Source: Lepidodermella squamata (lineage: Eukaryota; Animalia; Gastrotricha). From it: a DNA stretch of 64,000 bases. The position numbers and the translations under genes are program-made. Below are positions 1-28,359 of the stretch, piece after piece. The notes under the pieces are model-generated. The model ran no database searches and was not told the origin of the DNA. It saw nothing but the letters and a program-made list of their open reading frames with translations. The stretch's first letter is position 1, and every line of letters starts with the position of its first letter. The DNA is taken from the NCBI GenBank assembly GCA_047495785.1, contig JBLDXI010000016.1, positions 1-64,000 of the forward strand, written 5' to 3'.

Positions 1-67
1 ACACATCTCGTGAGAGTAATCTTTTAAAAACGACATTATTGCTAATTATTTAACAAATCCTGGCTCT

Positions 68-1015
68 TTGCCACATCGGATGAAAAGTTTCAACAATCCA
101 TGGGAAACTGGCTTTATTAACAAAGTAAATTTCGGAGGTGAATATTTTGCGAATATAACCAAACTAATCGATCACTTTAATGAAAAAATATCCATCTCAA
201 GTAGTAATGGCTCTATTTTTGCTCATTATGATTCAGTCAACAAAAAAACTAAAATTACCTGTAAATGGCCATATTCTATGTTTATACCTTCAGATTCTGC
301 TGGCCTCTTAGGTTTTGTGTCTCCAATAGAACAGAATACACCGTCTGGAGTTTTCATTTTTCCCAAGGCCCCAAAAAATGACGAGCCAGAATTTAATGAA
401 GTTTCCACTTTTGATATAAAGTCAACGTATGCCTTGGCATATGCGTGGAATATGAGCCACCAAATTCGTGAAAATCCACACATTTTATTCAACTCAGTTG
501 GGATTGTTAGGCTTTCTAGCAGACCAAAACTTAAGGAGGATGCAAATAATGAGACAGCGGCGGTAGAAAATCAAGAAGGCGTAAATTCAGCACAGCACTT
601 TGATTTTTCTGAGCAAACAGTAATCACCAAAGATAATGATTTACCGCCTGCCTTTATTTATGCATGCTATGAAGAAAGTGCTACAGCTCAATACAACATT
701 CAGTTGAATTATGGCAATAACTCACTGTTCATTTACTGCTCAGTTGCAGCGGATGTTTTTGTTGGAGATTGCCAAGCTAGCCTCCTTCGAATGATAACCT
801 ATTCTACGATGGCTTCTGCTACGGCAAATTCAGACTTGTCATCACATTTTACAGTGATTTATAACTCGGGCCTATATTTACCTTTAAAAGCCAATTTTAT
901 AGATTCAATTCAAGTTCAAATCCGCCGCGATAACGGGGCATTGATCGATTTTGTGGATGGTAGCAAAGTTGTATTGCTACTTCATATTCGCCGAAAAACC
1001 GGAGCCTTATATTAA
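68..1015 (+). CDS. Polinton minor capsid protein (penton/PZ), probably 5'-incomplete
   Basis: C-terminal FIYCSVAADVFVGDCQASLLR...YLPLKANFIDSIQVQIRRDNGALIDF...VVLLLHIRR resembles Polinton minor capsid proteins, and the gene lies upstream of the core and MCP genes. An in-frame stop at 17 suggests the true start is on an upstream exon. Confidence 0.8.
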   Translation: MPHRMKSFNNPWETGFINKVNFGGEYFANITKLIDHFNEKISISSSNGSIFAHYDSVNKKTKITCKWPYSMFIPSDSAGLLGFVSPIEQNTPSGVFIFPKAPKNDEPEFNEVSTFDIKSTYALAYAWNMSHQIRENPHILFNSVGIVRLSSRPKLKEDANNETAAVENQEGVNSAQHFDFSEQTVITKDNDLPPAFIYACYEESATAQYNIQLNYGNNSLFIYCSVAADVFVGDCQASLLRMITYSTMASATANSDLSSHFTVIYNSGLYLPLKANFIDSIQVQIRRDNGALIDFVDGSKVVLLLHIRRKTGALY

Positions 1016-1053
1016 TATAAGTGGCTGAGTTCTAATTATTAATATTACCGAAG

Positions 1054-1596
1054 ATGCCCCTAGCTTATTCTAACCAAAACGTTGACAAGTACCAGCAGTT
1101 TTTTCTCCGCCAACACTCCTCCCCGCTGATAGCAGGCTATGGAGCTGGAGCGGGTGCTAACCTGGACCATTTCCGTGGGGCAACAATTCAATTTCCATAT
1201 CATTATAGGGGTCAGGGAATAGGAAATATATTAGGTGCCTTTTTCAGAAATTTCTTCCCAGTAATTGCTCCGTCTATTTTTCAACAAGCATTATCTACTG
1301 GCCAAAAAATATTAGGTGATATGCAACAACCTGAGGGCGCTAGACCTAGTTTTACCGAATCCCTTAAGCGTCATGGCACTTCAGGCGCCTTAAACATGGC
1401 TAAGGATATTGCTGAAACGGCTTTGAAGCAACATCAAGGCGGTGGAGGTGGCCGTAAAAGGCGCCGTCGTCGTGGCCCTAGTAAAACTAGTAGTGTGACT
1501 GCAAAACGTAGGCGCCGTGCTTCTACTACAAAAAGAAAGGCTTATAAAAGGAAAAGACGCGCAACAACTAAATCAGTGCTATTTGAAGCGTCTTGA
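1054..1596 (+). CDS. Basic core (pVII-like) virion protein
   Basis: FRG...YRGQGIGNILGAFFR motif, glycine-rich potential adenain sites and an Arg/Lys-rich C-terminus; located between the minor and major capsid genes. Confidence 0.75.
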   Translation: MPLAYSNQNVDKYQQFFLRQHSSPLIAGYGAGAGANLDHFRGATIQFPYHYRGQGIGNILGAFFRNFFPVIAPSIFQQALSTGQKILGDMQQPEGARPSFTESLKRHGTSGALNMAKDIAETALKQHQGGGGGRKRRRRRGPSKTSSVTAKRRRRASTTKRKAYKRKRRATTKSVLFEAS

Positions 1597-1629
1597 GCCC
1601 ATTGCTGCGTTTGATTCTTCAAATTTGTA

Positions 1630-3120
1630 ATGGAAGGCTTTGGAGATAATTTTGTTCACCCAGCCTCAGCCTCTTCAATAGTATTATCTTCAGATTTAGA
1701 TTTATTTACTGTACCGCCTTCACAGCTTGCTGAAGAAAACCAAATAAGTATAGATGTTTACCCAATTGCCCCTCTTAATAGTTCACCGAACCTGATTGAG
1801 TTTCAAATCGGCCCGTACAATGATTATTTGTGTCTGTCACGCATGCAACTGATGCTCAAGTGGAAAGTAGTTAGAACCCCTTCTGAAGCTCGGAAGAAAA
1901 ATGCTGGCGAAGCTGACGATGCATACAACGAGTATAAGGCTAGTCTTTCGGCTACAAATTTACAAAAAGCCCCGCTTTGTTTAGCCCACCACACAATGTT
2001 CAAAACATGCGAGATTTCACTAAATGGGCAACTTTTAAGTGAACAAAATTCATTATACGCTTATCGGGCCTATATTTCAACGCTTTTGTCTCATAATACT
2101 GATGCAAAAAACACGATATTACAGACACAATTTTGGTATCCTGATACAGCTAAAAAACTGGATAATTTTGACAATTCAAACGAGGGATTTAAAAAACGGT
2201 TGGAAATTGTTCAGGGCGGGAAATCTGTGTGCACCCTGGGACGCCTGTTTGCAGATCCTATGCTGTGTAATAGGCTACTTCTACCTAATGTTGAAGTCCG
2301 CATCAAGCTCTATAGGGCATCTAACAATTTTGCTTTGGTTGGGCCGAGCACAGCTGATCCTCACTCAATCGTCATTGAATCTGCAAAAATTATTGCCCGG
2401 GCTGTTGTTGTGTCGCCGGACATAGTGATTGCTCATACGCGTGCGCTGGAAAAAACTAACGCCAAATATCCTATAATGAGAGTTCGAACAAGGCTTTTTC
2501 ACATACCAAGTAGTGTTTTGAGTTACAGTGTAAGTTTGCTCATCGCGCGTTTCTAAGTCAATTTTTAAAACTCTAATGGTTTAACAGATACCACAATGTA
2601 TTAATGGTAAGCTTCCAAGGCGTATGTTTTTCTGTTTTTTTGAAGATTCCGCCCTGAATGGAACGGCGGGTAAAAATCCATTGAATGCATTACACAGCCA
2701 GCTATCCCGAATATCGATTTATTTGGGCAATGAACTACATCACTCAACAGCTCCCTTGGAAATGGATTTTGCAAATGGAGATGTCACCAGAGTCTATTTG
2801 GAGCTTCTCAATGCTATCAACCCAGATAACCCTTTCAAGGCATCTACGTTAACTATGGATCAGTTTATTAATGGCTTCACAATTTTTGGTTTCGATTTAT
2901 CGCGCAACTCCTCGTTGCAAAATTACTCAGTTATACGCACAGGTACCTGCAGAGTAGAGTTGAGTTTTGCTGTTCAAACAACAATTGTTACTCAGCTGTT
3001 AGTATTAACTGAAACTGATTCAGTTTTTGAGGTATCATCTTTTTTCATAAAATTAAAATTGCCTTAAAATTCAAATTTTTTAAGATCACACGAACGCGTG
3101 ACGTAATTGTTGATTCTTAA
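1630..3120 (+). CDS. Polinton major capsid protein (double jelly-roll, PY), 3 exons, ~459 aa
   Basis: Exons 1630-2529, 2588-3031, 3085-3120 (GT-AG introns of 58 and 53 nt) join in frame. Motifs SDLDLF.VPP, YAYRAYISTLL, GKLPRR, GFTIFGFDL and terminal EITRTRDVIVDS. Confidence 0.92.
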
Positions 3121-3130
3121 GCAGTTTTTC

Positions 3131-3694
3131 ATGTACAACAATGAATTGGAAGATTTCATCCGGATTGATCCAGTACTAAAAAAGTTTGACATTTTTGTTG
3201 TAGCCGCTGATCAGCTACCACAGCAGCTTCCTATTGTGAAAAATAATCCACAATTGATTATCTGTAACACAGGAAATGTATACAATTCTACAGGAAAGCA
3301 CTGGGTCACACTGTTTGTTCACAGCGCACAGCATCCTGATGAGCCCTGTGAGTTTTTCGATAGCCTTAACCTTTCCCCTTCCTATCATAACCTCTATATC
3401 GACAACTTTTTGAAAGCGAATAGCCAAACAGAAGTGCCGTACATTCATTGCAATAGGTCTTACCAGCATGTTTTTTCACAAATCTGCGGCTTATGGGCTC
3501 TATATTACAGCATGCTTCGAGCGCGAGGTAAAGACATGCACCAAATTTTGAGGCATTTTGATCAGCTTGGATCAAAGAACAATTTGCTTATAAAAGACTG
3601 TGTACTTTATCATAAATTTAATACATTATATTCCCACTATGGTCTATCTATGAGACCACTTGAAAGAATAAAACCCTGTAACGTTAGATTATAA
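3131..3694 (+). CDS. Adenain-like (C5) cysteine maturation protease
   Basis: NTG...GKHWV (His), EFFDS (Asp), YQ...ICGLW (Gln/Cys). ATG at 3131 just after the MCP stop. Confidence 0.92.
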   Translation: MYNNELEDFIRIDPVLKKFDIFVVAADQLPQQLPIVKNNPQLIICNTGNVYNSTGKHWVTLFVHSAQHPDEPCEFFDSLNLSPSYHNLYIDNFLKANSQTEVPYIHCNRSYQHVFSQICGLWALYYSMLRARGKDMHQILRHFDQLGSKNNLLIKDCVLYHKFNTLYSHYGLSMRPLERIKPCNVRL

Positions 3695-3697
3695 AGG

Positions 3698-4541
3698 ATG
3701 AGTGATTTGCGCTGCTGCCCTGGCAACATAAATGAAGCTTTGCCTTTTGTTCACCCTAGCACAATTCTCATTGTTGGGCCGTAAGTGACGATGGAAATAA
3801 AAGTCAATATATTTTAGTGTAATTTACTCATCTTCAGGTCGGGGAGCGGTAAAACAAGTCTGGTGCTTCAAATCCTACAGGATGCATTCAGTTTTGAACT
3901 TCCTTTTGAGAGAATTGTCTATTTTTATTCTACTTTCCAACCCATTTACAATGACATAGCCGATGCTGCATTGCAAGTTCACAAAATTAAAGTTGAATTC
4001 GTAAATTTAGCAGACACAAAAAACAGCAGTAGCGATAGCTTCAGCTTAAAAAATTATATCAACGACAATAACGAGACGCAGCCCCGCTGTTGCCTAGTAT
4101 TTGATGACGTGTATCGCCTATTAACTGAAGACGAAACACTGGTACAGCTTTTTTTAGGAGGGCGGCACTTGAATACGACAACCATTCTCCTTCAACAAGT
4201 TTTGTTTACTCGAGCAAAAAATAGCAGGGAAATTCTGGTTTGCCTCAGAAAATTATTGTTTTTTCTTCTATGTATTTTCTATTCTATAGCAAAATGCAAA
4301 CTATTTATTCTATTTTCGCTGCATTTCCGACTCTGCAAGCTTTAGATCATATGCACAACGGCGTTCCCCAATGGGCTGGCGAGGCCTTCTTGAAGCGTTG
4401 AACCAAGCAACTGCTGAATCATCTCACACGCCACTGCTACTGGATAATTGTGCAACTACTCCGGATAATCTCCGCATTCGTTCGAGCAATGGCTTCGGTA
4501 GTAAACCTGGTTACGCTTACATTTTAGTCTCAAAGAAATGA
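3698..4541 (+). CDS. A32/FtsK-like DNA packaging ATPase, 3 exons, ~244 aa
   Basis: Exons 3698-3780, 3838-4237, 4290-4541. Splicing restores Walker A GPSGSGKT. Walker B LVFDD, GRH...Q motif and SREILQNANYLFYF are present. Confidence 0.92.
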
Positions 4542-4592
4542 TGATATGTACTATTATAAAAGGATTCATTGCCGCCCAATTTTCGTCGTTAA

Positions 4593-5006
4593 ATGAATAA
4601 AGTTATTACCTCAGCAACGTCACCATCGTTCAGTCTTGATAAAAAACGGCGGCTTTTTCTTGCATTGAAATGGTTATTGCATGCTCACCCCGGTCAGCGT
4701 GCTGATATTTTAGCAACTAGCTCTGTTAGCCTTATACGATTTCTTAGCCGTTGCGCCTTGTATTGGCTTCGCAGCACTAGTACTGTTCTGGCCCCTGATT
4801 TGGCTAAATTGAAACAAAAAGGTGTCAATTTGGTCGAGCACAACCGGCAAGTTTTTATTCGACACTGCCTTAATAGCAACAAGAACAATAGGCGAAATAA
4901 GGCTTCGAAAGCTTCCTTTTTTGCAGTTTTACCCACTGTATTGAAATCCTTTGCACCCAGGCTAAAGTTTGATTATTCAGAACTCAAGAGGCTTCTTCGA
5001 ATCTAA
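4593..5006 (+). CDS. Small basic Polinton protein (possibly PW-type conserved virion protein)
   Basis: 137 aa ORF with an upstream TATAAAA (~4555), tightly packed between the ATPase and the next ORF. The pattern LKWLL...RADIL...LIRFLSRCALYWL resembles small conserved Polinton ORFs. Confidence 0.6.
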   Translation: MNKVITSATSPSFSLDKKRRLFLALKWLLHAHPGQRADILATSSVSLIRFLSRCALYWLRSTSTVLAPDLAKLKQKGVNLVEHNRQVFIRHCLNSNKNNRRNKASKASFFAVLPTVLKSFAPRLKFDYSELKRLLRI

Positions 5007-5009
5007 ACT

Positions 5010-6161
5010 ATGCAGCGAAACTATGCACAGCGCATGACTATTGTTCCACTTGCGACACCTGGGCCAACTCCAGCACAACAACAACAACAACAACCAAACG
5101 CGAGCGACTTGATTGCTGCTAAAACATTGCTGAGCAATCCTCTGCTTTTCAAACTAGTGCAGCTATTACAGTCTTTAGACCGGGATGTGATAAACAACGC
5201 TAGTAGTAGTGATAATTCAGCCGATTTAGTGCGAAAACGTAACGAACTCATGCATGAGATTATGAATTTGAAGAAGCTGGTAGTTTTACAAGGCAGTAGC
5301 CAGCCGCCAGCCGCTATTCCAATGTCGCCTGCACCAGCAGATCGAGCAGAATCGAGGCCGCGCTCTCCTCCTCCTCCTCCTCCTCCTCCTCCTCCTCCTC
5401 CTCCGCTGCCGCCGCCGCCGCTTCCTTCTGCTTCTTCTCCTCCTCCTCCTCCTCCTCCAAAAAAACAGCAGCAACAACAACTTGCGCGCCAACAACCTAC
5501 TAAATTAACATCTAGTAATTTTGGTCAAGCGGCCGGGCCTAGCTATAACAACTATAACAGAGATTCGGGTATTGGCGGCTTTCAGCAGCAGTTTTCACCT
5601 AATACAACGCCACGACCTTCAACTGATAATAGCAGCAATTATGAATTTGATGATCTTCAAATGGATTTTCTATTCGCTGCCCCGCAAACATCATCGACTT
5701 CTAGCGCTGCAGCCACGACCGTCCTCAGCCACGATGATGTTGTTGTTGATCGGCCTAATGATGAGCAGCTGCCTACGAGAGGAGGGACCCCCCGCGCGCG
5801 CACCCCCCAGGCCCCTCGAGACAGCAACACAACAGCAGGGTCGTCTTCGTTTAGCGGCGATGAGGACAGCAGCGGCAGCAATAGTGAAGAGCTGCAAGAT
5901 GGTGCTGATAATGATGATAATCAAGCAGAAAGGCAAGAAGAAGCCGCTGCCGCTGAACCGATGGAAATTGAGCTAGCTGGAGCAGCAACTGCAGCGGCAA
6001 CGCCACGGAAGGGTCAAAAGCGCGGTAGAAAGCCACGTTCTATGACTGATCAAACACAAATATCACCACCTGGAAAACTTTTCCGAAGAACGTCACAGCG
6101 TAAGATAAATAAAATCAACAAGTTTCAAGCTGGCACAGGGTTTTGGAGTTTATTCATGTAA
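5010..6161 (+). CDS. Polinton proline/glutamine-rich, largely disordered protein of unknown function
   Basis: 383 aa ORF starting 3 nt after the previous stop. Helical N-terminus, polyproline tract, acidic then basic tail; converges on the PolB stop. Confidence 0.75.
   Translation: MQRNYAQRMTIVPLATPGPTPAQQQQQQPNASDLIAAKTLLSNPLLFKLVQLLQSLDRDVINNASSSDNSADLVRKRNELMHEIMNLKKLVVLQGSSQPPAAIPMSPAPADRAESRPRSPPPPPPPPPPPPPLPPPPLPSASSPPPPPPPKKQQQQQLARQQPTKLTSSNFGQAAGPSYNNYNRDSGIGGFQQQFSPNTTPRPSTDNSSNYEFDDLQMDFLFAAPQTSSTSSAAATTVLSHDDVVVDRPNDEQLPTRGGTPRARTPQAPRDSNTTAGSSSFSGDEDSSGSNSEELQDGADNDDNQAERQEEAAAAEPMEIELAGAATAAATPRKGQKRGRKPRSMTDQTQISPPGKLFRRTSQRKINKINKFQAGTGFWSLFM
5367..5459 (+). repeat. (CCT)n microsatellite encoding polyproline
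   Basis: Runs of cctcctcct within the 5010-6161 ORF. Confidence 0.9.
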
Positions 6162-6168
6162 TAATCGA

Positions 6169-9100
6169 TCATTGATCAGCGCTATATCCATGTGGATAAG
6201 TTAGAAAGGAAGCATCGCCGGGGCGTAGCCAACGTTTATCATAGGTTAAACGAATCTTTTTTGTTATATGAACACAATGAATTTCCGATAACGGAGTATG
6301 CACTTTTTTAAACTGAGTCTGATCCAATTCAGCGATGACGCTGTTTTTGTTGTTATCACCCCGGCCCCCGCTTCCGCTGGTTTCGTTATCGTGGAGACTT
6401 TGTATTACATGCTTGATGAACAAGAAAAAATCGAGAAGACTGCGTGAATGAAAACTTTGACGTATTCCCTGCGCGTGACGTAAATAATAAAAAACAGAGG
6501 GCGTAACAACAAGTAGCAATTACCTTTAACATTAGCTTGGCTTTGCCGTCAGCAAAAAGTAGGGCATATGCCTTACAGCCCAGTACAACCATTGCAATGA
6601 TGCGTTGCCCTGTATCAAGCTGATCCGCCAAGCCGCCAAGAACGGGTGTGAACTCAATTTTAGTAATTCCAGGCCCTTGAAGGCAAAAAATTGAATCCGT
6701 GTCTAAAACAAAAGACAAAAAACGTAGAGATGTTGGTAGCATAAGCGGCGCTATTCTCTAACCGCTGTAGATAGCACTTTTTGGGCCGACTCGGTACAGC
6801 TCACGAGCCAGTTTCACACGAGCATTAGCTGTTACGAAGGCCGCTGTTATAACTGAGGTGGATCCATTTGGAACGTCGGCATCTTTGGTTGGCCGTGTTA
6901 CAATTCGCAAGCGAGAGACATCATCAGAGTTGATGAGTAAGCCTAGTGGTTGAATATCCACAATTTCCAAAGCTGGATTATTTAGCATTTGCTGAAGCAG
7001 AAACGGGGATTTGATATAATCTGTTCTCTCTAGATTAGAATTCATAGCAAATCGACCAAAAAAGCTGTTCAAAACTAATTTGGCGATCGCGCGTAACCCA
7101 GGGTTCTTTTTATCCAACTTGGTGCTATCAATCGTTATACCAATGCGTTCCCATTGCTCCAAATACTGTGCTTTTTGTTCACTAGTAGCACAGTTTGGCG
7201 GCCAGCCGGAGGATTCGGCCTTCAAAATGGTGAATCTTTTAATGAAATCTCTGAAAATTGTATTGCTCTTCTTGAACTCCCATATCTAAAAAAAATAACT
7301 TGATAGAAGCCATGCATGAGTTGGCTAAACAAAATTATTAACCTCGTAGACTTCCAGCAATCTGTAGCCATGAACATCTGTAGCGTACTTCAGTTCCACA
7401 GAGCAATACGAACCAATCCAGGACCTTTCATAATCAGAATGGGTGCATTCACGGCTTGAAACGCACAAGTTTGGATTTGCAGTCGACGAACAAGCATAGC
7501 AACATGAGAACACGAGCTTGTTTTGTTTACTACGAAAGCAGAGTACAGGTAGCCAGATGTTTTTCGGCGCTAATACCTAGCAAAATAATGTGGTGATGAT
7601 GAAAGCAGGGAGACGATATGTAGATGCGAAGAGCTTACGCGTGCTTGTACGACACCAAAAAAAGATTCCTTTGAATAAATCTCCTGCAGTTTCTCGTTGT
7701 TTAATCTGAGATCCAAGGTGGATACTTTAGGTGGTCCTATTGCATAGTAGCCATCCATCATACAGCTTGGATATAACGAGTTGAAGTCGGCGGAAATTAT
7801 AGAATAATCGGGCGATGGAAATAAGAAGTCCTTGGTTTGCATCCCGCTTTCCTTACAAATTTGAGCAATCTTTTCCAAATTTTGGTCGCCTGAAGTTGAG
7901 TGTGATTCGGCAATCATAGCCATTAAACGAAAAGCTTCGACCCGCCCTAAAAAGTAGGCATGATGTTTTAATCCCGCGAAGATTAAATAGGGAAAACCTC
8001 CAGTTACCTCCAAAGAAAAACGAACGGCTCTCCATTACATTAGCTATTGTGAGATTATCATAAATCTCCTGTGCTCTCGGGTGTTGTTTGAAACTAGCTC
8101 TAATTTCATGCTCCCAAAAGCTTTGAAGAATGTAACCATTCGAGCGAAACAACTCTTCACGTTCCAAGGTTTGCTTGTAAACTACGCCGTTTGGTTGTCC
8201 AGATAGAAAATTTAGTTGTGAGGCCTCAAAGCATTGCAAGCAGCCATGGACAGCACAACCATGAACCTCGACAATCAGATCGGGTTCACTCGGAATTTTA
8301 TCACGACGTGCAACAAAACCGTCGACGCGATAAGGATAACGGTGGCCAGGTATAGATATTCGAACTTCTTGACGTGAGTTCTGAGCGTGTTTCATTGAAC
8401 CATAAGTTTCAGGGTCAGACTCCATCAGAAATTGAAGAAAAGCTATCGAGAGCCTGCTGTGTGAATCCTTGCCACAGTAGCCAGCGGTCGGGATGACAGG
8501 TAATGTATCCTTCGTAAGAAACAGCTTGCGGAAGCATGTGCTTGTGAGAGAAGCTAGTGTGATGCATTCTTTAAAGGCATCAGTAGAACACAACTCCAGC
8601 ATTAGCGCCCGAAATTTGATTGACGCCTTTTCCAAAACTAGACAATCCTGTATGCAGTATTGCAGTAACGTGTGGCGAACACTGAACCGTTTCAGTTTGT
8701 TTTCGTTGTAGAAAGTTAGAAATTCTGCTCTTTCAGAAGGAGACATTTTGTCAGGCTCATAGTAGATCATATTAGGCAGCTGTGGGAATTCGAGATTGAA
8801 ACTCGAAGGATTACAGCGAATTCAATCACAATAGCTCAAGAAGTTGATGATGTACTTACTTTTCTTTAGTGCATAAGACGTAAGGAAAGAAGGTTTTCTT
8901 GTCTGGGATTCCCATTGTTGCTGGTAAATCCCTGTTGTTGAACAAATACCTGTAAGCAATGTAGTTTCTTAGTGTTTCTTAGGTAACCTACCTTAATCTG
9001 CATTGAAAAAAGAGATATGAATCCAAAAATCTGATTTTTTGTTGTTTGAAATCAATGCATAGTAGAGATCCCTGCCTTTGAAGAATCTTCACTTTAGAAC

Positions 9101-11024
9101 ATCGTGTTTGAATTTCTTTCAGTAATAATAAGGAATCGAAATTGGCTGAGTTGTGAGCCAAATAAATCGACTGGTAATTCATAGGTAGAAGCACCCAGTT
9201 TACGAAATCCTCCAGAGGACGACTTCCATAAAAAATATGAAGTCCACAACTAGAATGGCATCGCTGAATCCTCGCTTCGATGCAGTGAGGTATGCATACG
9301 ACCTTTGCAACGATAAGGCATACTTGGAACTCATTGTTGTTATCAGCAAGTGATGGCGAAAATGTCTCAGTGTCCCAAAAAACTAGGTTACGATAACGTT
9401 CCAGTTTATTCGCCGGTTTCAAGGGCTAAAAATACACCAACCACAGTATTTTGAAAAAAGCTGGACTGAAAAAAATGAGTATACCAAGGGAGTCATGAAG
9501 CAGAAGTGTGTGCCATTTTCTTCGTCGCTGGCTTTCAAAGGCTCCTGACAAATGTGACAGCGCCGCCCGGGACACATAGCCTCATGCTTGAGAAAATGTA
9601 CAAATTTCCTCCCGCATTTAAAGCATGGATTCTTTTTAGCACATTTGTGGTTTTGCTTACAACGTTCGCTATACAAAACTAAAAACATAAAAAGAGCTGA
9701 ATAATAATGAAAAGGTTAAAAACATCAGACCTGCACGACATTGCGGACACCGCGTGTAGTTTTGTTGGTCTGTGTTGGAAATCACACGGCAAATGCTCCC
9801 TGATACACCTAAAATAATATTAATGATAAAAGAAGTGAAATTCAGGTTTTTCATGTAAAAATTACGGCAGGAAGAGCATGCCAACTTGCATCTGTGCACA
9901 GCCGTACTCGTTTTCGTCTGAAAGCAAGTGGGGCATATTCGTTGTGCATTGCTAAGAGTGGCCTTCATAAAGTTGAGATTCGCAATGACATGAAAATGAT
10001 GACTGTTGGGCTGAGAGACGTCGTTGCGATAAACCAGTAGAACAACAGGAAGCAACCCAAGGCTTACGCGATGATCAAATTCTGGGATTTCCCTAATAAC
10101 ATCCTGTGATTCGTACGAGTATACTACGAATCTGTAAGTATTATGTTCAGGATCGATAGCCGAACACAGGGCTGAGTAATGATCATCTAGATTGTAGGCT
10201 GGAAGGTTGAGAGGTAAGCCCGCTTTCTGATATAGCGCCGTGGCTTCGCGAAATTGACGATTGGTTCGCGTACTACGTATCGATTTGAAGGTTGCTTGAA
10301 GAGATGGATCCGTAGGATTCGCCTTCATGTGAGCCAAAGCCACTCCAGTGATGAGAGCTCTGCCCATGCAAAGATTGTTCGTTTCATTCTTGCGCGCTCC
10401 GATTCTAACGATCGATTTGGAGCGAAGAAAAAATTTGTCCAAAGTTTCGTTTATAGCCCGCTCTGCCCGAGAACCACCAACAATTTGACCTAGATCTGCA
10501 TTGGGGTTATCAATGACACAGAGACGAATTGTCCACCGACCAGCAAATGAGAGTTCTTCATTACTCTGTAATATTTTTCTCAGTTGATCAAAAATTGAAA
10601 TTTCCAGCAACCGATCGCGTTTCATGAAGGGTAGGCTAAGAGGCATCTTCAAGTCGGGGTGGTACAGTGTTAGCCGGCAGAAGGAATTCACAGGTAAATC
10701 ACGATGGATATTTACAACAATATCGAACAGGAAGTTGGCCAGAATATTGAAGCGGGTCTCCAAATCAATATTAGCCACCTGGTCGGCTGGTACGTTCTGC
10801 ACAAATGATCGAATATTATCCAGTCGAGGTTCATCAGCGCCACCAGACAATTGAATCATCGGCCCAAGCGAACTAGAAGATTGGCCATATCTGTTGATGT
10901 AGGTTGAGGCAAAGTCGGATGTTACGGGCTGAATGAAGTACTCCACAGAAAACATTTTGAATTTTGTAGAATGAATCAGGCGATTACTTCGAATAAATGA
11001 GTATTGTAAACTATAGTTATCCAT
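6169..11024 (-). CDS. Protein-primed family B DNA polymerase (pPolB), 11 exons, ~1424 aa
   Basis: Introns at 9809-9865, 9679-9730, 9426-9484, 8932-8991, 8802-8859, 7947-8007, 7577-7638, 7286-7342, 6703-6762 and 6469-6523 (581 nt) leave 4275 nt in one frame. Motifs: ExoI FWDTET, ExoII AHNSANFD, ExoIII YCIQD, FFGGRVE, A DFNSLYP, B KLVLNSFFGRF, C YSDTDS, KGIR, terminal YDKR...TYPHGY. Confidence 0.95.
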
Positions 11025-11141
11025 AACAATCTAAGATTAAAAATTTAAAATTGATCGAATTTGGGAAGAGGTAAAACTTTATTACAAGGATAGATTGAAA
11101 TAAATATTCAGTAAGTCATTTTAGTCAAGTTTTGTGTTAGC

Positions 11142-11663
11142 TTATTCATTGGCTGTTTCAATCATCGCTGCAACAGTTAACACCCCAGTTGCAAGGTCTT
11201 GAAACTGAGCTGCATCAAGAGAGACTCCTTGTCTTGAGGGTTGTTTATTTCCTAAAAAGTTAAATCATAAAAAGATTGCTATTACTGTAAATTTGAAGTA
11301 AATACCTTTAGCATCCAGATAAAACCTGCGTATATCTATAAGAATCGGTGAAAATGATGGCACAAAGACACAGACTTCAATTTTGCATTCATGCATCGAA
11401 AATTTAAAGCCTGTGTTGTGAGATAGCAGGGCAAGTTGAGCCTGAGCAACCCAAGCATCATTCGGCGGTCGAAAATAAGGAACGAACTGGCTAAGAAATT
11501 CGTCTTGTCTAAAGGCGAGTTTTTTAGGCTTATCGTTCTTATCTTTGCGATCAGTCATTATGTAGATGAGATTAGAATCCTGAGGATGCTGTTGAATGAC
11601 CAAGTTACTAGACATGTGATGATTGACTGTCTGGTTAGCAGATTCTACTATCGCCTCAGCCAT
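11142..11663 (-). CDS. PC4-like ssDNA-binding/coactivator-fold protein, 2 exons, ~155 aa
   Basis: Removing intron 11252-11305 gives LIDIRRFYLDAKGNKQPSRQGVSLDAAQFQDL, matching the PC4 consensus (DIR.fY...G...P.kkGisL...Q). Confidence 0.85.
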
Positions 11664-11705
11664 GATTATTGAAAATTAAATCTAATGAAATAAGAATGTA
11701 AAACT

Positions 11706-12068
11706 TTAAGGGATGGGTTCTTTATATTGGCATAACTTTTCATGCCCAAAAATGAGGTCATAAGTTAGAGTAATGGGACAGCCTTTATCAGAATATTGGC
11801 ATTTGTAAATCAAATTCGAGATAATGTTCGATAAAATTACAGGGGGTTTAACGAAATCTTTCCCTGTTAATGATTCGCGGCAAAGTGGACAGCAACATAC
11901 TGTTCGAGCTGAATTTTGAAAAATAGCGAGAACACATTTAGTACAAAATAAATGGCCACAGGGGCGCGTTTGAATAGGATTAAGTAGGATAGATAAACAA
12001 ATTGGACATTGCAAAGATTCAGCGTCTAAAATCTGGCTGTTCGAGAGCACAAGTCTTGTTGGATCCAT
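11706..12068 (-). CDS. C3HC4 RING + TRAF-type zinc-finger protein (putative E3 ligase)
   Basis: CPIC...PCGHLFCTKC...CPLCR followed by C.YSDKGC...HEKLC.Y. Confidence 0.88.
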   Translation of the reverse strand: MDPTRLVLSNSQILDAESLQCPICLSILLNPIQTRPCGHLFCTKCVLAIFQNSARTVCCCPLCRESLTGKDFVKPPVILSNIISNLIYKCQYSDKGCPITLTYDLIFGHEKLCQYKEPIP

Positions 12069-12078
12069 CAATGAGGAT

Positions 12079-12843
12079 TCAAGTCTGAGAGATTACAGGC
12101 GTGATAAGAGAGGCAACATACTGAGAAGCTTGCTTTAGAACCTCAGAGGCATTCAAATTATCAGTGTCGATAACAAGCACGGGACATGGTAGGGATTTGT
12201 TTGTAGTCTCAACAGTACACATTTTTTCATGAAACTCATGTACGAGGCGTAAATAATCCAGTGATAATAGCATTTCAGAACCCCGAGCTCTAGCTACGGC
12301 TCTTTGACAAGCTATTTGGGGAGAGGAGCGCAAGTAAATAATAGCTTCAGTTTTTACAAAATTCGGCTCGAAATTATCATACAAATTCATGAGAGCGTGA
12401 TATTCGATAGAATTTATGCGCTTGGATGCATACGCACATGGGATAAAGACGTTTTTAGAACAGAAGGGCGTTCGATCATGCAGAACGATAGTATGCGCCC
12501 CGTAGATTTCAGGTTTGTGGTTAGGGGCTGAATAAAGGCCGCACATATCACTCGTGGCTACAATTTGAAAGTTGAACGCATTTTTCATCTGATAGTAATC
12601 TTTCAAAATGTTAGTTTTATCGTCATCAGTAAAGGACTCCCAACGATGAACAGGCTCGCAAATTGGCCACGCGGTATATCCCTGAAGTTTACGGTTGAGT
12701 GAAGGTAGATTAGTGAGACCCTCGATTAAGGTTGATTTCCCGCTAAAACAAGAGACTTTAAATAGAATTCTATTCGGTGGAGTATATGAGACTTACGCCC
12801 CAATGTTGCCGACTATGCCGAAATGGTAGACTTTAGGATGCAT
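12079..12843 (-). CDS. Deoxynucleoside kinase (dNK family), 2 exons, ~236 aa
   Basis: Removing intron 12743-12796 restores the P-loop GNIGAGKST. Also EPVHRW, DRT and IIYLRSSP...R..AR.R..E....DYL..H motifs. Confidence 0.9.
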
Positions 12844-13277
12844 CCAGCTTGCTTCAAGAAATATGCTAAGTGTATTCTTGAAGCATCTCTCTTAAATAGT
12901 CTGAGTGATATTTCCATAAAAGGAAAAAACAGGGAGATGTTTTGTTTGAATTGTTTAAGGTAATTACACCGTAAAGGGTAAAAAATCCTAATTGCTTTTT
13001 ATTTTGATAAGTAAAAAATCGCATTGTTTAATTAGGGAGGATGTATAAGATTTATTGACATGATGTTTTCTTATTGAATTACCGACAGCAATTAAGGAGG
13101 ATGTATACAATACCAAGAATCTTTGATGAAAAGCATTAAAGCCAGCACTGAGGGGTCAACAGAGCTAAAGGCCCTAATGCATTTTTAAGGAAGATTGAAT
13201 TACAAAAACAATATGCCTGAAAGGAGGTAGCCGCTCACATAAAAATCGAACCTCAGTAACAATATAAATTATAAAAT
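12844..13277. promoter_or_regulatory. Divergent intergenic/promoter region between the dNK and dUTPase genes
   Basis: AT-rich non-coding gap between divergent starts. Near-identical motif AATTA(G/A)GGAGGATGTATA at ~13030 and ~13090; TATA-like sequence at ~13262-13276. Confidence 0.5.
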
Positions 13278-13781
13278 ATGAAGCTGAAGGTAGAGCTAAC
13301 AAGTAACAAAGCTAAAGAACCGACAAAGCATACTAAAGGCTCTGTGGGTTGGGACATCTATTCAGCAGAAGAGACGACACTGCAACCTGGAACCAGGGGA
13401 CTGATTCAAACTGATATTAAAATCTGTTTACCACGAGGATATTATGGACAACTATTCAGTCGATCAGGAATGAGCATCAACCATGGAATCGATACGGTCG
13501 CTGGAGTAATAGGTAAGAAGCAAATAATAATGAAAATTACTAATGAATATCTGTATTTTTCATGAATTAAAGACGCCGACTACACCGGAAAAATCGTAGT
13601 CTGCCTTGCAAACAACAGCAAAACACCTTACAAGATTAAAATAGGCGACCGTATTACCCAGTTGGTGTGTTTAAAATATGGTCGCTTAGAATCTGCAGTA
13701 ACGGTAACGGGGCCATTGAAAAACGCTCTAGCAGCAAATTCGACCCGTGGCGATAACGGATTCGGTTCATCTGGACGTTAA
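13278..13781 (+). CDS. dut: Trimeric dUTPase, 2 exons, ~147 aa
   Basis: Intron 13513-13572. Motifs GWDI, SRSG, GVIDADYTG, GDRITQL, RGDNGFGSSG. Confidence 0.95.
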
Positions 13782-14047
13782 CCCCTCCAATCAAGCCGCT
13801 ACAAATCTCTGAACAAATGAATAGAAAAACTGATAAGACTTATCCCAGCTATAAATTCATTGCTTGAAACGTTAAGACTAATAAAAAGTGTTTGTGTGAA
13901 TGAAAAAGGGCTCTATTGCAGCTGCACTAAAGAAGCAGTGTAAAAATGATTAGTTTAGCTCATAACAGGTGAAAAAACGAAGATTTGTTTATTTTAGTTA
14001 GGTGAAATCATAGCAGTGGGTTAAAACGAAGGTATATTGACAAGAAG

Positions 14048-14234
14048 CGGCTATAGTACAAATCGCCGTACTGCTATTACTCATCCCCAAATTGCGTATA
14101 TTTATACCAAACGGGTATAGTAAAAATCGCCGTACTGCCATTACTGATCGCAAATTGCGTATATTTATACCAAACGGCTATAGTAAAAATCGCCGTACTG
14201 CTATTACTGATCCAAAGTTCCCATCCTTACTACT
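14048..14234 (+). repeat. Subterminal ~63-64 bp tandem repeats (about 2.6 copies) and right terminus of the Polinton TIR
   Basis: Units start at 14048, 14112 and 14175 (CGGCTATAGTAAAAATCGCCGTACTGCTATTACTGATC...), followed by CCTTACTACT. Confidence 0.9.
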
Positions 14235-15206
14235 AGCAGAAGATCTTACTATCAACAATCGCGGCTAAGGGTAGGCAGTTGAAACAGTCGATGAAGGTGT
14301 GCCACAGCTTCGGGCTAAATCTTCGTTTGCATTCGTCGTGAAATCCGTAGATGTACGATATCGTTGAAGTTTCGTGATTGCCGCGGAGGATGAAAAACTT
14401 GTCAGGGTATTTGACTTTGTAACAAAGTAATAGGCACATTGTCTCGAGCTGTTGTGGGCCTCTATCGACGTAATCGCCCAGGAATAGGTAGTTTGAATCT
14501 GGAGGGAAGCCGGCTACACCGAATATTCGAACAAGGTCCGTGAATTGGCCGTGAAGATCGCCTAAATTCAGATGGGTAATGCTGGAATCGATAGATTTAT
14601 TACAGTAATTACCGCAAATTTTGATGGGAGCAGGGATTTCGAGTAGAGTAGGCTGACTTAGAAAAATGTCTCTTGCATTATGGCATAGAGCTGTGATTTC
14701 CCACTCGCTCATCTGCACCCTGTCGCCCAGCCACGCTTCTACAGATAAAATGTTACTTAAGAGGGTCCCCCACAGAGCAGCAGGCTTCAAAGCAGGGTAA
14801 ATGCACAAAACAGTCCTCCTAGCAGGCGCTCAGTCTTAGCCTCTGATTTTCAACCTATGGACTAACATGATGGTCAGCCATTCTAGCTTTTCACACCACA
14901 AATTGAGGAGCAAAAGTCATGAAAACTCCGTAATGTAGCTCAGACCTCAATTTGGTCGAAAGAGTCGTTTTTCAAAAAATTTCTTAAATTTATGATGAGC
15001 CCATATTCAGGAAAATTACGCAGAATTTTAACGTAATTAATTCGATATATTGTTGCGTGGCGTTTGCGCCGCTTTTTGAGTTTATCCTGCTTTAAAGCCT
15101 GCTGCTCTGTATGGGGGCCCGACTTGAGACGCACAAATTTCGAAAACTCACCCTCTAACAGCCTCGAGATCAAATGATCAACGTCCAATACATAACCTCC
15201 AGGCAT
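14235..15206 (-). pseudogene. Host PP1-type Ser/Thr phosphatase catalytic subunit, 5' part, interrupted by the Polinton
   Basis: Exons 15152-15206, 14613-14738, 14235-14561. Motifs GDLHGQ, GDYVDRG, RGNHE. The sequence breaks at AIVDSKIFC, just before the expected CHGGLSP. Confidence 0.9.
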
Positions 15207-15417: not shown

Positions 15418-16677
15418 ATGAGAAGGATGCTTAGTAAGCTCGCGATTACCTTATTTGCCATTGTCCCAGCATTTTCTGGGATGCAGCTGCCTAATGACAG
15501 GAAAGCAAAGCCTGTGAGCAAATTGAATCGCGACGATTTGCTAACAGCCTCCCCTACTCCTCCGACATGCGGAAAAGGCAAGTTGAGACAATCGATTCCG
15601 GAAAACGCCGAATCTACCACTGAGGGGCTTAACGCTAAAGCAACTGAATTCCCTCATTTCATACTCTTAAGGTATAAGCTTTTCATCTTTACTTCTCATG
15701 ACCAAAAATATCGTGAAAAAATACAGAAGTAAATGTTTTCTCAGGTTGCTATTTTCATCCTTATTTCGGTAATTTCTTTAGGATCGATTCCGGAGGAGAA
15801 AAGTTTGCTTGGTGTACTGGGGCGCTGATTGCCCGAAAGTGGATCCTTTCCTCGGCAAGTTGCCTCGGAAAGGGAGTCCAGATGGCTGCTTTTTACGGCG
15901 TCGACGTTATTGAAAGGTCGACGGTCGCACGAGAAATCGATTTGATAAACAGTGAAGGCAAAGCTTTGGATGACATCTTAACAGATTTGGTCATCATTCA
16001 TCCGAAATTCGAATCAGACAAGAATCCTGAGTTCAATTTTGCTCTAATACGAATCTCCCCTACTCACTTTGAGTTGAGCAATGGGAAGAGTGTTGTGAGC
16101 GCGAAATCTTACAACAATTTCTCGGAAATCTTTTCCCCGATTTGCCTGGCTGATGCTCCATCTCCTGGTAATAAGTCCTTGCTTCTTGAAACTACGTTTT
16201 CTGGCACGCAAACAGATGGCGACATTACAAAAAATCGCTTGCAAAGTTTCCAACAAAAGGTATGCGATTGTTTCGTTGGGGTTTTTTTGTATACGAATCA
16301 TCTTTTTTCAGCCCTGTCCCGATCTTTTGAATACCAAATCGCCCTTGGTAAGATCAATCTATTCATAAGCATATCTGATTTTGTTGTTGTTATAGTTCTG
16401 CACCGAATCATTTCGAGCTTGTGGGTCACATTCCGGATCGTTGTTGACGTACCTCGGGGAAGGCGATCGATGGTACTTACTCGGCCTTTCTAACAATTTT
16501 GAATGTGTCGATGAGATGAGAAAGTTATTCACGGTGTTAAATCCTGAAATCATGACTTGGATAAAGGCGTGGACGGATGAACAGCAGAAAAATGGTACAT
16601 CGTCGCGTGCAATTAACGCTTCAGGTTCATTTCCCTTGCTTTTATTACTAATAATGACGTTTGCAATTATGGAATGA
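15418..16677 (+). CDS. Secreted/GPI-like serine protease homolog, probably non-catalytic (multi-exon)
   Basis: Signal peptide; CTGALIARKWILSSASC in place of TAAHC; FNFALI in place of D.AL; PICL; no GDSGG; hydrophobic C-terminus. Exon boundaries approximate. Confidence 0.65.
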
Positions 16678-17605
16678 ACAACTTATTGGAAATGTGATCG
16701 TCTCATGATTTTCCCTTATTTCATAAAGAAAATTCTCAATGTGGATCAAATAATTTTATATTTATGTAAAAAATGACCTTGCCACACCCTCTGCGCGGTT
16801 TCCATTGACCACGAGCGTAAACTCCATATTTGATGGTAAATTGCTACGGCAGAAAACGTTTGTTCCAAAAAAGCTAATGGATCGCACGACCAAAATGTTT
16901 CATCGGGGGTCATGGCAACGATCGATTGACCAATCAGCGTGCGCATTGGATTGGAGTTTCAAGTGGTCACGCAATGCAAGCTGTTTTTGATAAACATTAG
17001 AAAAATCACTCATGCGAGCCAGCAATATGCGCCTGGGCTCATAAATTCAAGAAATTTGAGCACTTTGAGTAATTTGAGTGTATTTGGCGTGTGTATTTTT
17101 GAAATTTCGACGTCATGTCGGTTTGGCCAAAACTCGGTCTCAAATGAGATTTTTATAGTTACGAGCTCAGAATTTACTGCCAGTCATTTTTCTGAAAATC
17201 GCACCTCAAAATTTCCAAGTAATATGTCCGCTTTCGTTCCTTTTTGCGAGTTCATAAGCAGTATGTAATATGTTCATAGCATGAGCTCGAGAAGAGCATC
17301 AAAAAATCACTCAATCGCGAGCCAAATGTTGGTGTGAAAATCACCGAAAAAAATCGATGCACGCATGAGGAATCGAACCGAAGCAGCGCGATGTTGATGT
17401 CAGCAGGTGTATTTTTGGCTTTGTGCTTACTGAAAATGAGGAAAATTACCTTCATTGTTTCGAAAATTATGATTCTGGGACAATATTTATTATATTGCCT
17501 GTCTAGACTTGCGAATAATTTTTTCGGTATTTATAAAGCACCAATGTTGAAGTCATTGATTTATTCTTTCTTGAGAATACGAGTTCCGAATTAAAACCAA
17601 GAGTC

Positions 17606-18030
17606 ATGCATTTTATGGGTGTTTTTTGTCTCTCTATCCTTTTGTTTTCCGCGGCTGTATCGTGCTGCAAACCGTGCCGTGCTGCGGATTATCCATTATT
17701 AAATATCGATGAAGACATGCTTGTCGATGCTCAAGAATTAAAACCAGAAGAATACCCTGGTAGAAGCATCAAAACCAACGGCAGAAATAAAAATCACATA
17801 AATGAAAACGGAGAATTCGCGTAAGTTCTGAATTGTTTTATTTTCCCGCATCTAGTATAATAATTACAGACCCGGTCTTCAGCAAGAATTTGGTCTCTGA
17901 AGTTTGATAAGGGAGAAGCTATGATAAAACTTGCAACTTTGGAGGATCACATAATGTATGAGCAGACCGTTCATCGTGATAATAAAGATCTGAGGTTCTC
18001 ATCTAGATGCGTTTTTGGTATCTATGCTTG
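17606..18030 (+). CDS. Small putatively secreted orphan protein, copy 1 (multi-exon; 3' end uncertain)
   Basis: Hydrophobic N-terminus. VDAQELKPEEYPGRSIKT...HINENGEF followed by a GTAAGT donor, shared with copies at ~24921 and ~31370. Confidence 0.5.
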
Positions 18031-18539
18031 ATTGACGGGAATTTAGGCAATTATGACCATTTTATTGCTTCTTCACATCGACCTCTCCGAAGGGATCAGT
18101 CCCATGTCCCATCATTCCGAGCTTGTGGATCATTTTTCTGATCTTTGTTGACGTACCCTGGGGAAGGAACTTACTAGGCCTGTCTAAAAATTAGGTCCAA
18201 GTTTGGCGAGTCAATTCTTTTGGGATGGGTCCAAAATACTCCATATTTGCTACTTTGCCCACCTATCTCGCTTGACCTTGACTTTCAGCTCAATTAAAGG
18301 TTGTTGAATGCTCCTCTCATAACTCACAAGAGTACAGAACGGGCAAGACGTACCTAAAACGTGATCAAAAGTTGACACTAACCGTTATAAATTCAAACAT
18401 CAATAAATGTTAATTAGTTGGTAATGCAGGGGCCTGTATATCTAATTTCGGCTAATTCCTTTGAAACCTGAAACTTCCCACGGCATTTCAATTTATTTAA
18501 CACAACACCTCGGTTCATACCTCGCAATATTCCGCTTTC

Positions 18540-20867: not shown

Positions 20868-21053
20868 AGCGTCACAGCCGTCTTCAGCTTTAGATTGATA
20901 AGAATAAAGAGAGCTTTGAACCTTCCCTTGTTGATTAGGCTTCTAACTTCGTGCAGCAGACAGGAGCAGACAGATGCGTGATTTGCATTTTCAACTCATA
21001 ATTCGTAAGCTTTTGCGATTAAATCCTCTACAACGAGTTCATTCGAGTGAGAA

Positions 21054-22388
21054 ATGTTACCCCTCAGGAATATTTGCTTCCTCATACATCCTGTACAAGC
21101 TCTATCCTCAGCTCAGAACTTCGCCCAGTGGACATATCCGCTAAGAAGATTGCAAACAACTCAGCGAATTCAGAACTACAACAGTCACGCTCATAGAGCA
21201 GAGCGAATCCGGGGTGAACTCGACGCATTTTCTCCCCTGCATTGCGGTAAACTTGGCCAAAACGGTAATGGCAAACGGCGTGTTAAATTTGGCATCCTCG
21301 GGCGGATCCTTGGTGGGCTGGAGGTCACCACTAGCATGTATCCATATCAGGTTTTGCTCATGTTAGACCTTTACGGTGTCTAGGTTTAGGAGAACATGTC
21401 TAGCTTAACATTTTCCTGTATTCAGGGTACGAGAAAACAGTGGCCTGCGTCAGAATTGTGGTGGCGTGCTTATAGACCGCGAATGGGTCCTGACAGCGGC
21501 ACATTGCTTACAGAAACCGCAACAGCACGTTGTGTTTTTTGGAGTCGATTCCATTGACAAACAGCGAGGGCCGTTAACTTATATGCTCGAGCCTGCTGTA
21601 CAGCGGACGGTCGATCAAATTACGATCCATCCGAACTTCGAACGAGACAACACCTTGGACCCAGCGTTTGACTATGCTTTAGTTCATTTTGGTAATTTTT
21701 CATGGATATGCGCATATTTTATGACTGAATTTACCTGAAAGAGCCCATCGAGTATTCAGGCTACATAGCTCCTATCTGCATTTTCCGGCAAAATACTCCG
21801 TTTTTCGATGGTGGAACAACAGCAGTTGCAACGGGTTATGGTTTGGTTCAAAGTGGCGGCCCTGTCAGCGAAGTATTGCGATCAATTCAAAACAATATAA
21901 TGCCCATAAAAGTAAGTCCATTGAACTGAATCCGCCAAACCAGTCAATGAATTTACATAGGAGTGTCAAATTGCGAAGTATTACGGAAATCCTATCGATC
22001 CAGGAACGGTAAGTGAATTCCTCAGATTTTCCTTTCAACTCAATGAAATTGCTTTAAATTTAAAGTAACACATTTTCAGATGATTTGCCTTGATACGAAT
22101 GGGCAACGGGATACTTGTACGGGCGACTCTGGTGGACCCTGGGCCACTATAGCCCGCCCGTTCCCTGGAGCTGGGCAGCGAATGACGTTGGTAGGAATTA
22201 CAAGCTATGGGAATCCTAGCGGCTGCGGTGACCCTCCAAGTGTTGGGGCGAGAATTACTGACAACGTTGTAGCTTGGATACTGAAATTGGTAAACAGGAA
22301 GGCGAAGAAGCGGAGAATACGGACCTCCTTCAATCTGTATATAACAGATGGAACACAGAAGTCAACAAATTTAAGAACTGGCAAATAA
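21054..22388 (+). CDS. Trypsin-like serine protease (multi-exon)
   Basis: R-ILGG activation site, CGG, TAAHC, DYAL and DTCTGDSGGP across short introns. Confidence 0.88.
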
Positions 22389-22984
22389 AACCTTAGCGAT
22401 ACTAAGCATACAGTTTTGGCATGATCTAGTTTTCGCTTAAATTTCATTCAATTTTTAATTTTCAATTTCCTGATTAGCTAAGTTGAGCCAAATGTGTTAG
22501 GTCCCATTTTCACGCTTACTTGCCACCGCAGACGTGGACGCACATTTTCGATGCATAAATCAACTCCGTATGAGTCAAATTCGACTTGCTCGCTCGTTAA
22601 AATTCCTAGACATTTTCTTATGGATTTTTCAACAAATTTGCTGACTCTCCTGCTAGCTTCAATTTCGGAATATGTATAATGACGGGCGTTTGGAATCATT
22701 CTCCTATGTATAGGCAAAGACCGCCATTCGACCGAGCCATCGCCATTGCAGCCAAAATTCTATTATGGATTATTTTTCCGCACAGAATGAAAAGCCATTC
22801 TTTCAGGTGGCTGGTTCAGTCATCTCGGATTTGAATAATTTCATCTCTTCCTACCAACCTTCTAATAGGTTGAGTCGGCAGCTGATATGAGCATTAATCA
22901 AACTCACCACAAGAGCGAGGTTACTGCTTCATAAATATATAGTCATCTCTGGTATCAAGCTGAAGTATTTATCTACTAGAAAAA

Positions 22985-28218: not shown

Positions 28219-28359
28219 ATAACAGCGTTGAAAAGTATTATTATTACTAAAAACGCGACAAAACAGCGAAGGACGAAAACAGCTGTTGCTATTAAATAAA
28301 CAGCATAGGCTAGAAAACACCGCGCTTTATTACTCAATAAATTAATTAGTTAACTCGCT

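Follow-up and report, generated by a model that had tools for sequence, protein, structure and literature searches.

Spliced core genes in an integrated animal Polinton, with introns that probably predate its insertion

Is a Polinton-type element with a fragmented ORF track a decayed copy, or a set of genes divided by introns, and where might such introns have arisen? The locus that raises this question lies at the left end of the 64-kb stretch of DNA analysed here (the window). The element occupies positions 18..14234, and its left part runs beyond the window edge, where an integrase, the left terminus and a 6-bp target-site duplication would lie; 'apparently intact', as first proposed, therefore goes further than this right-hand part supports. 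We regard it as probable that the locus represents the right-hand 14 kb of a Polinton integrated into an animal genome, with spliced genes, the introns of which are old and were carried into a recent insertion. The features below draw on joints in contigs of sequencing run X1 and on DNA run X2.

1..17, no strand: non-element DNA; both runs carry different letters upstream of base 18 (X2 in a contig, X1 in a loose end)
18..1015, plus strand: probable gene for the minor capsid protein (penton), its 5' part missing from the window and its frame without any intron found; called from Atlas and position
1054..1596, plus strand: 180-aa ORF with an Arg/Lys-rich tail, at the PW place of vertebrate Mavericks by position alone
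1630..3120, plus strand: major capsid protein (MCP) gene; introns 2530-2587 (predicted) and 3032-3084 (X1 joint)
3131..3694, plus strand: adenain-type maturation protease gene, no intron; Atlas similarity 0.96 to Peptidase_C5 clusters
3698..4541, plus strand: A32-type packaging ATPase gene; introns 3781-3837 (predicted) and 4238-4289 (X1 joint)
4593..5006, plus strand: 137-aa ORF, at the PM place by position alone
5010..6161, plus strand: 383-aa Pro/Gln-rich ORF, at the PZ place by position alone
6169..11024, minus strand: protein-primed DNA polymerase B (pPolB) gene; ten introns, all in one X1 contig (X1 joints 9809-9865, 9679-9730, 9426-9484, 8932-8991, 8802-8859, 7947-8007, 7577-7638, 7286-7342, 6703-6762 and 6469-6523)
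11142..11663, minus strand: small gene, possibly PC4-like; intron 11252-11305 (X1 joint)
11706..12068, minus strand: RING-finger gene, no intron found; zf-C3HC4 E 4e-7
12079..12843, minus strand: deoxynucleoside kinase (dNK) gene, dNK E 1e-21; intron 12743-12796 within the P-loop (X1 joint)
13278..13781, plus strand: dUTPase gene; intron 13513-13572 (X1 joint); poly(A) end at 14046
14024..14234, no strand: right terminus; three 63-nt repeats, (ACT)2 at 14229-14234
14235..15199, minus strand: 5' half of a host PP1-type phosphatase gene; Metallophos and STPPase_N matches; exon cut by the element end

The first-pass annotation had proposed 17 GT-AG introns of 52-62 nt, and all 17 intervals are present with GT..AG boundaries and a mean length of 57 nt, distributed as it had counted them (MCP 2, ATPase 2, pPolB 10, PC4-like 1, dNK 1, dUTPase 1). 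Fifteen of the 17 appear as exact joints in X1 contigs, among the joints listed, including 12 of the 14 introns in the core genes for pPolB, MCP and ATPase, and none of the 15 spliced joints has any depth in X2, again among the joints listed. X1 is a single run whose RNA type was only guessed by the tool, none of the runs listed for the element being recorded as RNA; its canonical joints, and the poly(A) in which loose ends at 14046 and 4953 terminate, mark it as cDNA-derived. Numerous 'opposite strand' joints of X1 were treated as library fold-backs, and its depth, which is higher on the right half of the element, is unfit for ranking expression. After splicing, all six genes are free of stops, with X read at junctions, giving about 8 kb of open intron-bearing coding sequence and products of 461 (MCP), 245 (ATPase), 1428 (pPolB), 155 (PC4-like), 147 (dUTPase) and 236 (dNK) residues, X included. 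No introns were found in six other frames (minor capsid, protease, RING and the three unnamed ORFs). That the element is a decayed pseudogene with insertions misread as introns has some appeal from the fragmented ORF track, and Genewise is known to label large insertions in dead Mavericks as 'introns' (PMC8097293); this reading is refuted by the 15 canonical joints that X1 shows exactly and X2 lacks, and by spliced frames that are all open, so that we give it next to no credence.

The polymerase holds most of the introns. A single X1 contig of 4,731 nt covers 5614-10925, which corresponds to 5,312 nt once 581 nt are taken off for the ten introns, one of which (6703-6762) falls within motif C. 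As had been expected of the spliced product, it aligns at nearly full length (residues 95-1424 of 1428, to P0002, E 4e-112), and it retains all six of the Exo I-III and Pol A-C motifs. Compared with 63 long homologues, six of the ten junctions are free of indels, three carry 1-3 extra columns, and the remaining one lacks nine columns. The named homologues come from coral, hemichordate, fish, spiders, tardigrade, oyster and urchin. In a quick version of the tree, seeded from P0002 with 40 of 119 homologues and a query that is long and compositionally odd, the end branch of pPolB is 3.07 against a median of 0.5; the tree gives distance, not placement. Identity is at most 32% to each of these 40 homologues, among which pPolB is without a close relative.

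Spliced MCP likewise aligns over nearly the whole of a profile of 95 full-length homologues (profile positions 7-434 of 437, E 1.7e-121), and the alignment is contiguous across both junctions (276/277 and 424/425). The structure model of exon 1 (pLDDT 90.7) resembles the PBCV-1 capsid (Z 15.7, rmsd 3.2, 218 aligned) and the mavirus MCP (Z 14.1, rmsd 4.1, 209 aligned), and the capsid protein is a double jelly-roll. We identified 3,725 sequence relatives, the best of which show 29-41% identity among 150 listed; one top match is an insect F54H12.2-like protein. The 46 short matches to the capsid profile stop at profile positions scattered over 208-435, and do not clearly cluster at 276 as a shared MCP intron would require. 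The first MCP intron (2530-2587) has no listed X1 joint, an X1 contig edge lies at 2588, and the interval is the best-scoring of three open choices among 25 GT..AG pairs. The first ATPase intron (3781-3837) also has no listed X1 joint and lies within Walker A; of five open choices among 17 GT..AG pairs it is the sole one that leaves Walker A whole, and an X1 contig of depth 7.5 that spans 3794-3925 covers part of it in unspliced form. From homology and motifs, we infer that both of these introns would prove to be real.

The ATPase assignment is supported by a Pox_A32 match (E 3e-7, 30.6 bits against a cut-off of 22.8). For the protease, the Atlas recognition value is 2772, with the Peptidase_C5 family on 14-28% of cluster members; the Pfam C48 match is weak, and sequence search gave no match to a solved structure. 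The product of 18..1015 has an Atlas feature similarity of 0.97 to the Sputnik V18/19 cluster, with a recognition value below the bar of the tool and no Pfam match, and its frame directly precedes an ORF and the major capsid gene, a position that forms part of the penton call. X1 cover is sparse at 170-1014, an observation without evidential weight. The products of 1054..1596, 4593..5006 and 5010..6161 have no Pfam matches. Among the accessory genes, positions 2-70 and 69-129 of the dUTPase Pfam profile are split over two exons. The gene first annotated as PC4 does contain one intron, which is spliced in X1, but the label itself is weak, the Pfam PC4 match being sub-threshold (E 0.33) and confined to the second exon.

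Genes are tightly packed, with gaps of 10 nt between capsid and protease and 3 nt between protease and ATPase. Their order follows the module integrase-minor capsid-PW-major capsid-protease reported for vertebrate Mavericks (PMC8097293), which would place the integrase just beyond the left edge. Ends of the (AGT)2//(ACT)2 type are represented by the right end, where the (ACT)2 end motif of Mavericks (PMC8097293) is present, the left end being outside the window. Positions 1-17, which may resemble a long-read barcode, are probably a leftover sequencing tag at the contig end. The right end interrupts the host PP1 exon, which suggests that the insertion is recent. Host genes elsewhere in the window include a receptor tyrosine kinase, ANF-type receptors and trypsins, consistent with an animal host.

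These features bear on whether the locus is a single, immobile, domesticated Polinton in which host selection keeps the genes and the introns were gained in place. We consider this unlikely. The genes are transcribed and spliced, the window contains no integrase, and contig scans gave no copies; moreover, no variants are listed in X2 over 1-14234, as expected for a single locus or very few recent copies, and X1 shows one base difference, the samples dating from 2015 and 2024 and carrying different organism labels. Contig depth in X2, about 1,500-1,800 for the long contigs of the element and 1,428 for the PP1 bin, is unfit for estimating copy number. Domestication is opposed, however, by a clean terminus with an end motif that cuts the PP1 exon directly, by the retention of polymerase motifs, capsid, protease and ATPase in genes packed as in a viral genome, and by loose ends at 14095 and 14158, in X1 and X2 alike, that reveal a second sequence sharing this end, possibly the left terminus, possibly a sister element.

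The introns themselves have a high AT content (GC 0.30, as against 0.43 for five large exons), and AG precedes eight of the 17. A recent burst of introners into this copy after integration, as in dinoflagellate polinton-like viruses (PMC12166617), might be suspected from that precedent and from the narrow range of intron lengths. Similarity among the 17 introns does not exceed chance, however, the best pair being matched by 7% of 200 shuffles; they lack terminal inverted repeats, have no copies elsewhere in the 64-kb window, and form no families of similar introns, the hallmark of introners, either among themselves or within the window. Nor were intron-like inserts seen outside the coding sequence of the element, whereas about 25% of dinoflagellate viral introners lie in coding regions. 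An introner burst is thus largely refuted and very improbable. Because the introns are mutually unrelated, they are likely to be old gains, and their age and divergence, in an element whose clean terminus interrupts a host exon, suggest that they predate the insertion.

Introns similar in size to those of the host had also been claimed. They do belong with the host short-intron class, but they are about 6 nt longer and lie off the host mode (median 57 versus 51, host mode 49-52; P=0.036 for 17 versus 11 introns), and introns of at most 52 nt make up two of the 17 viral but eight of the 11 host introns. The proposal of a viral lineage with host-type exon-intron structure stands accordingly for the retention of spliced Polinton core genes, and not for the host length mode. 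Such a difference would be expected if the introns had evolved in a different host, one whose minimal introns are slightly longer, before horizontal transfer of the element to this genome, a variant of our preferred reading that differs in the place of intron origin. We give it only a slim chance, since the host set is small, comprising 11 hand-picked short introns from four genes without RNA support, includes introns of 60, 64 and 71 nt, and leaves introns of 173 and 413 nt out of the length test. Within pPolB, introns occupy better-conserved stretches than random sites (P=0.003, or 0.018 without the intron-free N-terminus); the MCP junctions are not unusually conserved (percentiles 10 and 77).

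On the preferred reading of old introns carried into a recent insertion, the introns were likely acquired one by one, long ago, within the lineage of the element, probably by independent insertions that were often at AG|-type sites, and were likely brought along when this copy recently entered the host gene. Lying within coding sequence, several of them in catalytic motifs, they would persist because only exact loss would be tolerated. Within the nucleus, host RNA polymerase II would transcribe the element and its introns would be removed by the major spliceosome, so that each replication and packaging step would depend on host splicing; the element would copy itself using its protein-primed polymerase and insert by means of an integrase encoded to the left of the window. 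A possible benefit of the introns is better export, or escape from the silencing of long intronless RNA. Six intron-free frames and one uninterrupted host frame of 788 codons weaken the case that introns are required. More tentatively, the element might belong to a hidden, still infectious clade of animal polintoviruses that depends wholly on the spliceosome, even for its capsid and packaging genes, carries introns from genome to genome in its virions, is disguised by them as host genes and so keeps its transcription in settings that silence intronless Polintons, and is missed by intron-blind screens, a possibility that we hold to be doubtful. Pattern searches for related loci gave 154 matches for the capsid pair alignment and seven for a polymerase exon in viral contigs, and 111 for another exon in metagenome contigs, none of which was confirmed.

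With animal Polintons, adintoviruses and Eupolintoviridae the element shares pPolB, a double jelly-roll capsid, a probable penton, an adenain-type protease and an A32 ATPase, as well as the (ACT)2 end motif and the order minor capsid-ORF-major capsid-protease; it differs from animal Polintons and Mavericks in carrying dNK, dUTPase and RING genes, and from vertebrate and nematode Mavericks in that 17 spliceosomal introns divide six of its genes, the capsid gene among them. Core genes had been said to be long uninterrupted ORFs, and intronless Maverick core genes are indeed reported (e.g. PMC8097293). In nematode Mavericks, introns occur in cargo genes only, and transcription of the C. plicata-type elements is undetectable (bioRxiv 10.1101/2022.07.12.499685, PMC10748475). 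No case of intron-bearing core genes in an animal Polinton was found in the literature searched. Dinoflagellate polinton-like viruses are alike in having spliceosomal-type introns within integrated polinton-class elements, but theirs are recognisable young transposon families, mostly post-integration and for the most part not in coding regions (PMC12166617), whereas those described here are mutually unrelated, all coding, spliced, and in an animal. Intron-rich mirusviruses are also alike in having GT-AG introns in virion genes, and provide an active, spliceosome-dependent DNA virus with a nuclear life cycle; they have an HK97 capsid, belong to another realm, infect protists, and carry introns near 80 nt mainly in morphogenesis genes (PMC12768974). 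Their two richest cultured genomes reach 0.62-0.65 introns per kb; the present element has 1.2 per kb, with ten of the 17 in the polymerase.

The prediction that ORF-based screens would see only fragments is borne out, unspliced pPolB yielding four short exon pieces with Pfam PF03175. In vertebrate Mavericks 'intact' is defined by intronless ORFs, and 96% of loci are classed as degraded (PMC8097293); a prokaryotic gene caller has been applied on the same intronless assumption (PMC10120064). With introns in its core genes, this element falls outside 'intact' Mavericks, a working rather than taxonomic definition, and standard virus searches are likely to overlook its lineage or to classify it as decayed. 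A spliced, transcribed element means that working Polinton lineages can slip past the intronless-gene filters of surveys, and that some 'shattered' Polinton copies may be alive. Uninterrupted homologues mark the 17 introns as clear gains within a known set of genes, and thereby provide a rare handle on intron origin in animals. Transcripts for capsid, protease and ATPase bear on the question of whether animal Polintons produce virions, and the proposal that mobile DNA gains protection from silencing through introns becomes testable in a natural element.

Two public sequencing runs hold the stretch: X1, whose RNA label is a guess and not on record but whose joints and poly(A) ends mark it as cDNA-derived, and X2, which is DNA. 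Among the joints listed, X1 contigs skip 13 + 2 = 15 intervals, all GT..AG on the coding strand, and poly(A) ends are present in this run. X2 has zero depth at all 15 joints, and its contigs are continuous across them where pieces are listed. A single X1 contig, 4,731 nt long, matches the span 5614-10925 once the ten polymerase introns are taken out, apart from one base. Splicing is thus shown for 15 of the 17 introns, bearing out the first-pass annotation, which had read the breaks in the ORFs as GT-AG introns. For the first intron of the major capsid protein (MCP) gene (2530-2587), an X1 contig has its edge at 2588, the profile positions are contiguous across the junction, and the chosen pair scores highest (153 bits vs 148 and 141) of the three open pairs among 25 candidates. 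For the first ATPase intron (3781-3837) the Walker A motif speaks in favour, but the sole X1 piece listed at this site is unspliced.

Features of the element and its right flank
18-14234: element within the window
+ strand, in order: probable minor capsid, basic ORF, major capsid, protease, packaging ATPase, two unnamed ORFs
minus strand, in order: DNA polymerase, small PC4-like gene, RING gene, deoxynucleoside kinase
+ strand, after the - strand block and before the terminal repeats: dUTPase
14235-15199, - strand: host gene for a PP1-type phosphatase, 5' half, adjoining the element end

An X1 poly(A) loose end lies at 4953, inside a 137-aa ORF and 17 codons upstream of its stop, with no genomic A-run. 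The X1 polymerase contig extends ~550 nt beyond the stop (5614-6168), antisense to a 383-aa ORF, which reflects either an extended 3' end or convergent transcripts that overlap.

When read with X at the junctions, no intron-bearing frame contains a stop. The spliced capsid and polymerase also align near full-length to Polinton homologues. MCP spans positions 7-434 of a 437-position profile (95 full-length matches among the best 150), and its first exon has a predicted jelly-roll fold matching the PBCV-1, EhV-201, mavirus and Sputnik capsids (Z 13.7-15.7). Nearly the whole length of the polymerase can be aligned with homologues that are uninterrupted (~26% identity), and none of its six motifs is lost. 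The protease is adenain-like; the identity of the minor capsid is weaker, and the PC4 match of the small gene is below threshold. By sequence, a stretch of the polymerase gene at window positions 8200-8450 (- strand) resembles a VSR-type nuclease insert; some homologues bear that name, and such an insert is described for some Polinton polymerases (PMC10748475).

Because the homologues are uninterrupted, the 17 introns are gains. Several lie inside motifs, namely polymerase motif C and the P-loops of the ATPase and kinase. Conservation at the ten polymerase sites exceeds that at random sites (P=0.003; 0.018 without the N-terminus), which is not so for the two capsid sites. A recent introner burst is argued against by introns that are AT-rich, use all three phases (7, 6 and 4) and resemble neither each other nor other sequence in the 64-kb window; eight of the 17 are preceded by AG. 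The description of these introns as host-sized holds loosely, in that they are of the short class, but they are ~6 nt longer than host short introns centred on 49-52 nt (P=0.036, against 11 hand-picked short introns, frame-checked for two trypsins only). This difference would fit an origin of the introns in another host, which we regard as improbable.

The right terminus, at 14234, comprises three 63-nt repeats with (ACT)2 as the last motif, the end motif reported for vertebrate Mavericks in the available text of PMC8097293. A second sequence with the same terminal stretch, present in both runs, belongs either to the left terminus or to a sister element. Both runs also extend upstream of base 18 (X2 by ~1,070 nt) with letters differing from window positions 1-17, so the element is already under way at the window start. 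Positions 1-17, which disagree with both runs, resemble an untrimmed sequencing tag, and the window start is probably a contig end. The module of vertebrate Mavericks, in the same available text, unites integrase with minor capsid, PW, major capsid and protease (PMC8097293), and the integrase of this element would therefore sit just off the left edge.

The element ends inside a PP1 coding exon, a stop is created directly after the cut, and the other half of the gene is absent from the window; insertional disruption is likely. Given 17 diverged introns, a stop-free copy and a clean terminus lying within an exon of the host, the best explanation is probably that introns were gained long ago while the lineage was replicating, and that an intron-bearing copy would then have inserted recently into the host exon. 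The main rival, domestication in place, seems unlikely. The polymerase occupies a very long branch in the tree, and scans of viral and metagenome contigs found no related loci.

Within the first PP1 intron, a 350-nt inverted-repeat element with 43-nt arms (14767-15115) has many variant contigs in X2, which suggests a multi-copy MITE. The host cluster (15717-24200, 35317-47063, 49003-53960) holds genes of the trypsin-like kind, several ankyrin genes, an SDR, and a tyrosine kinase preceded by a receptor ectodomain region. The frames of two paralogous ANF-type (class C GPCR-like) receptor genes (18501-20867, 32362-34380) run uninterrupted over very long stretches, although their surroundings are otherwise rich in introns. 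The tyrosine kinase, ANF-type receptors and trypsins point to an animal host. Tandem VOMI-domain genes (55238-56950, 59083-60493) continue into a Ser/Thr-rich domain without a Pfam match that bears a likeness to aerolysin-type pore-forming domains, and an ORF without a Pfam match (28350-28838) resembles the endonuclease part at the C-terminal end of a non-LTR retrotransposon protein.

By analogy with the HUSH result in human cells, as given in the accessible portion of PMC8770142, the introns may have a role in escape from silencing, although no intron was found in six of the element's frames. We infer that the element may be mobile and form virions, and likewise any benefit of its introns. 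Introners in dinoflagellate polinton-like viruses (PMC12166617) and intron-rich mirusviruses (PMC12768974) are precedents, as far as the accessible parts of these papers go. No report of spliceosomal introns within an animal Polinton's core genes was found in the searched main text of freely accessible papers, and the word 'intron' does not occur in the available part of PMC11131425. A real, spliced element of this kind is at odds with the published description of Polintons.
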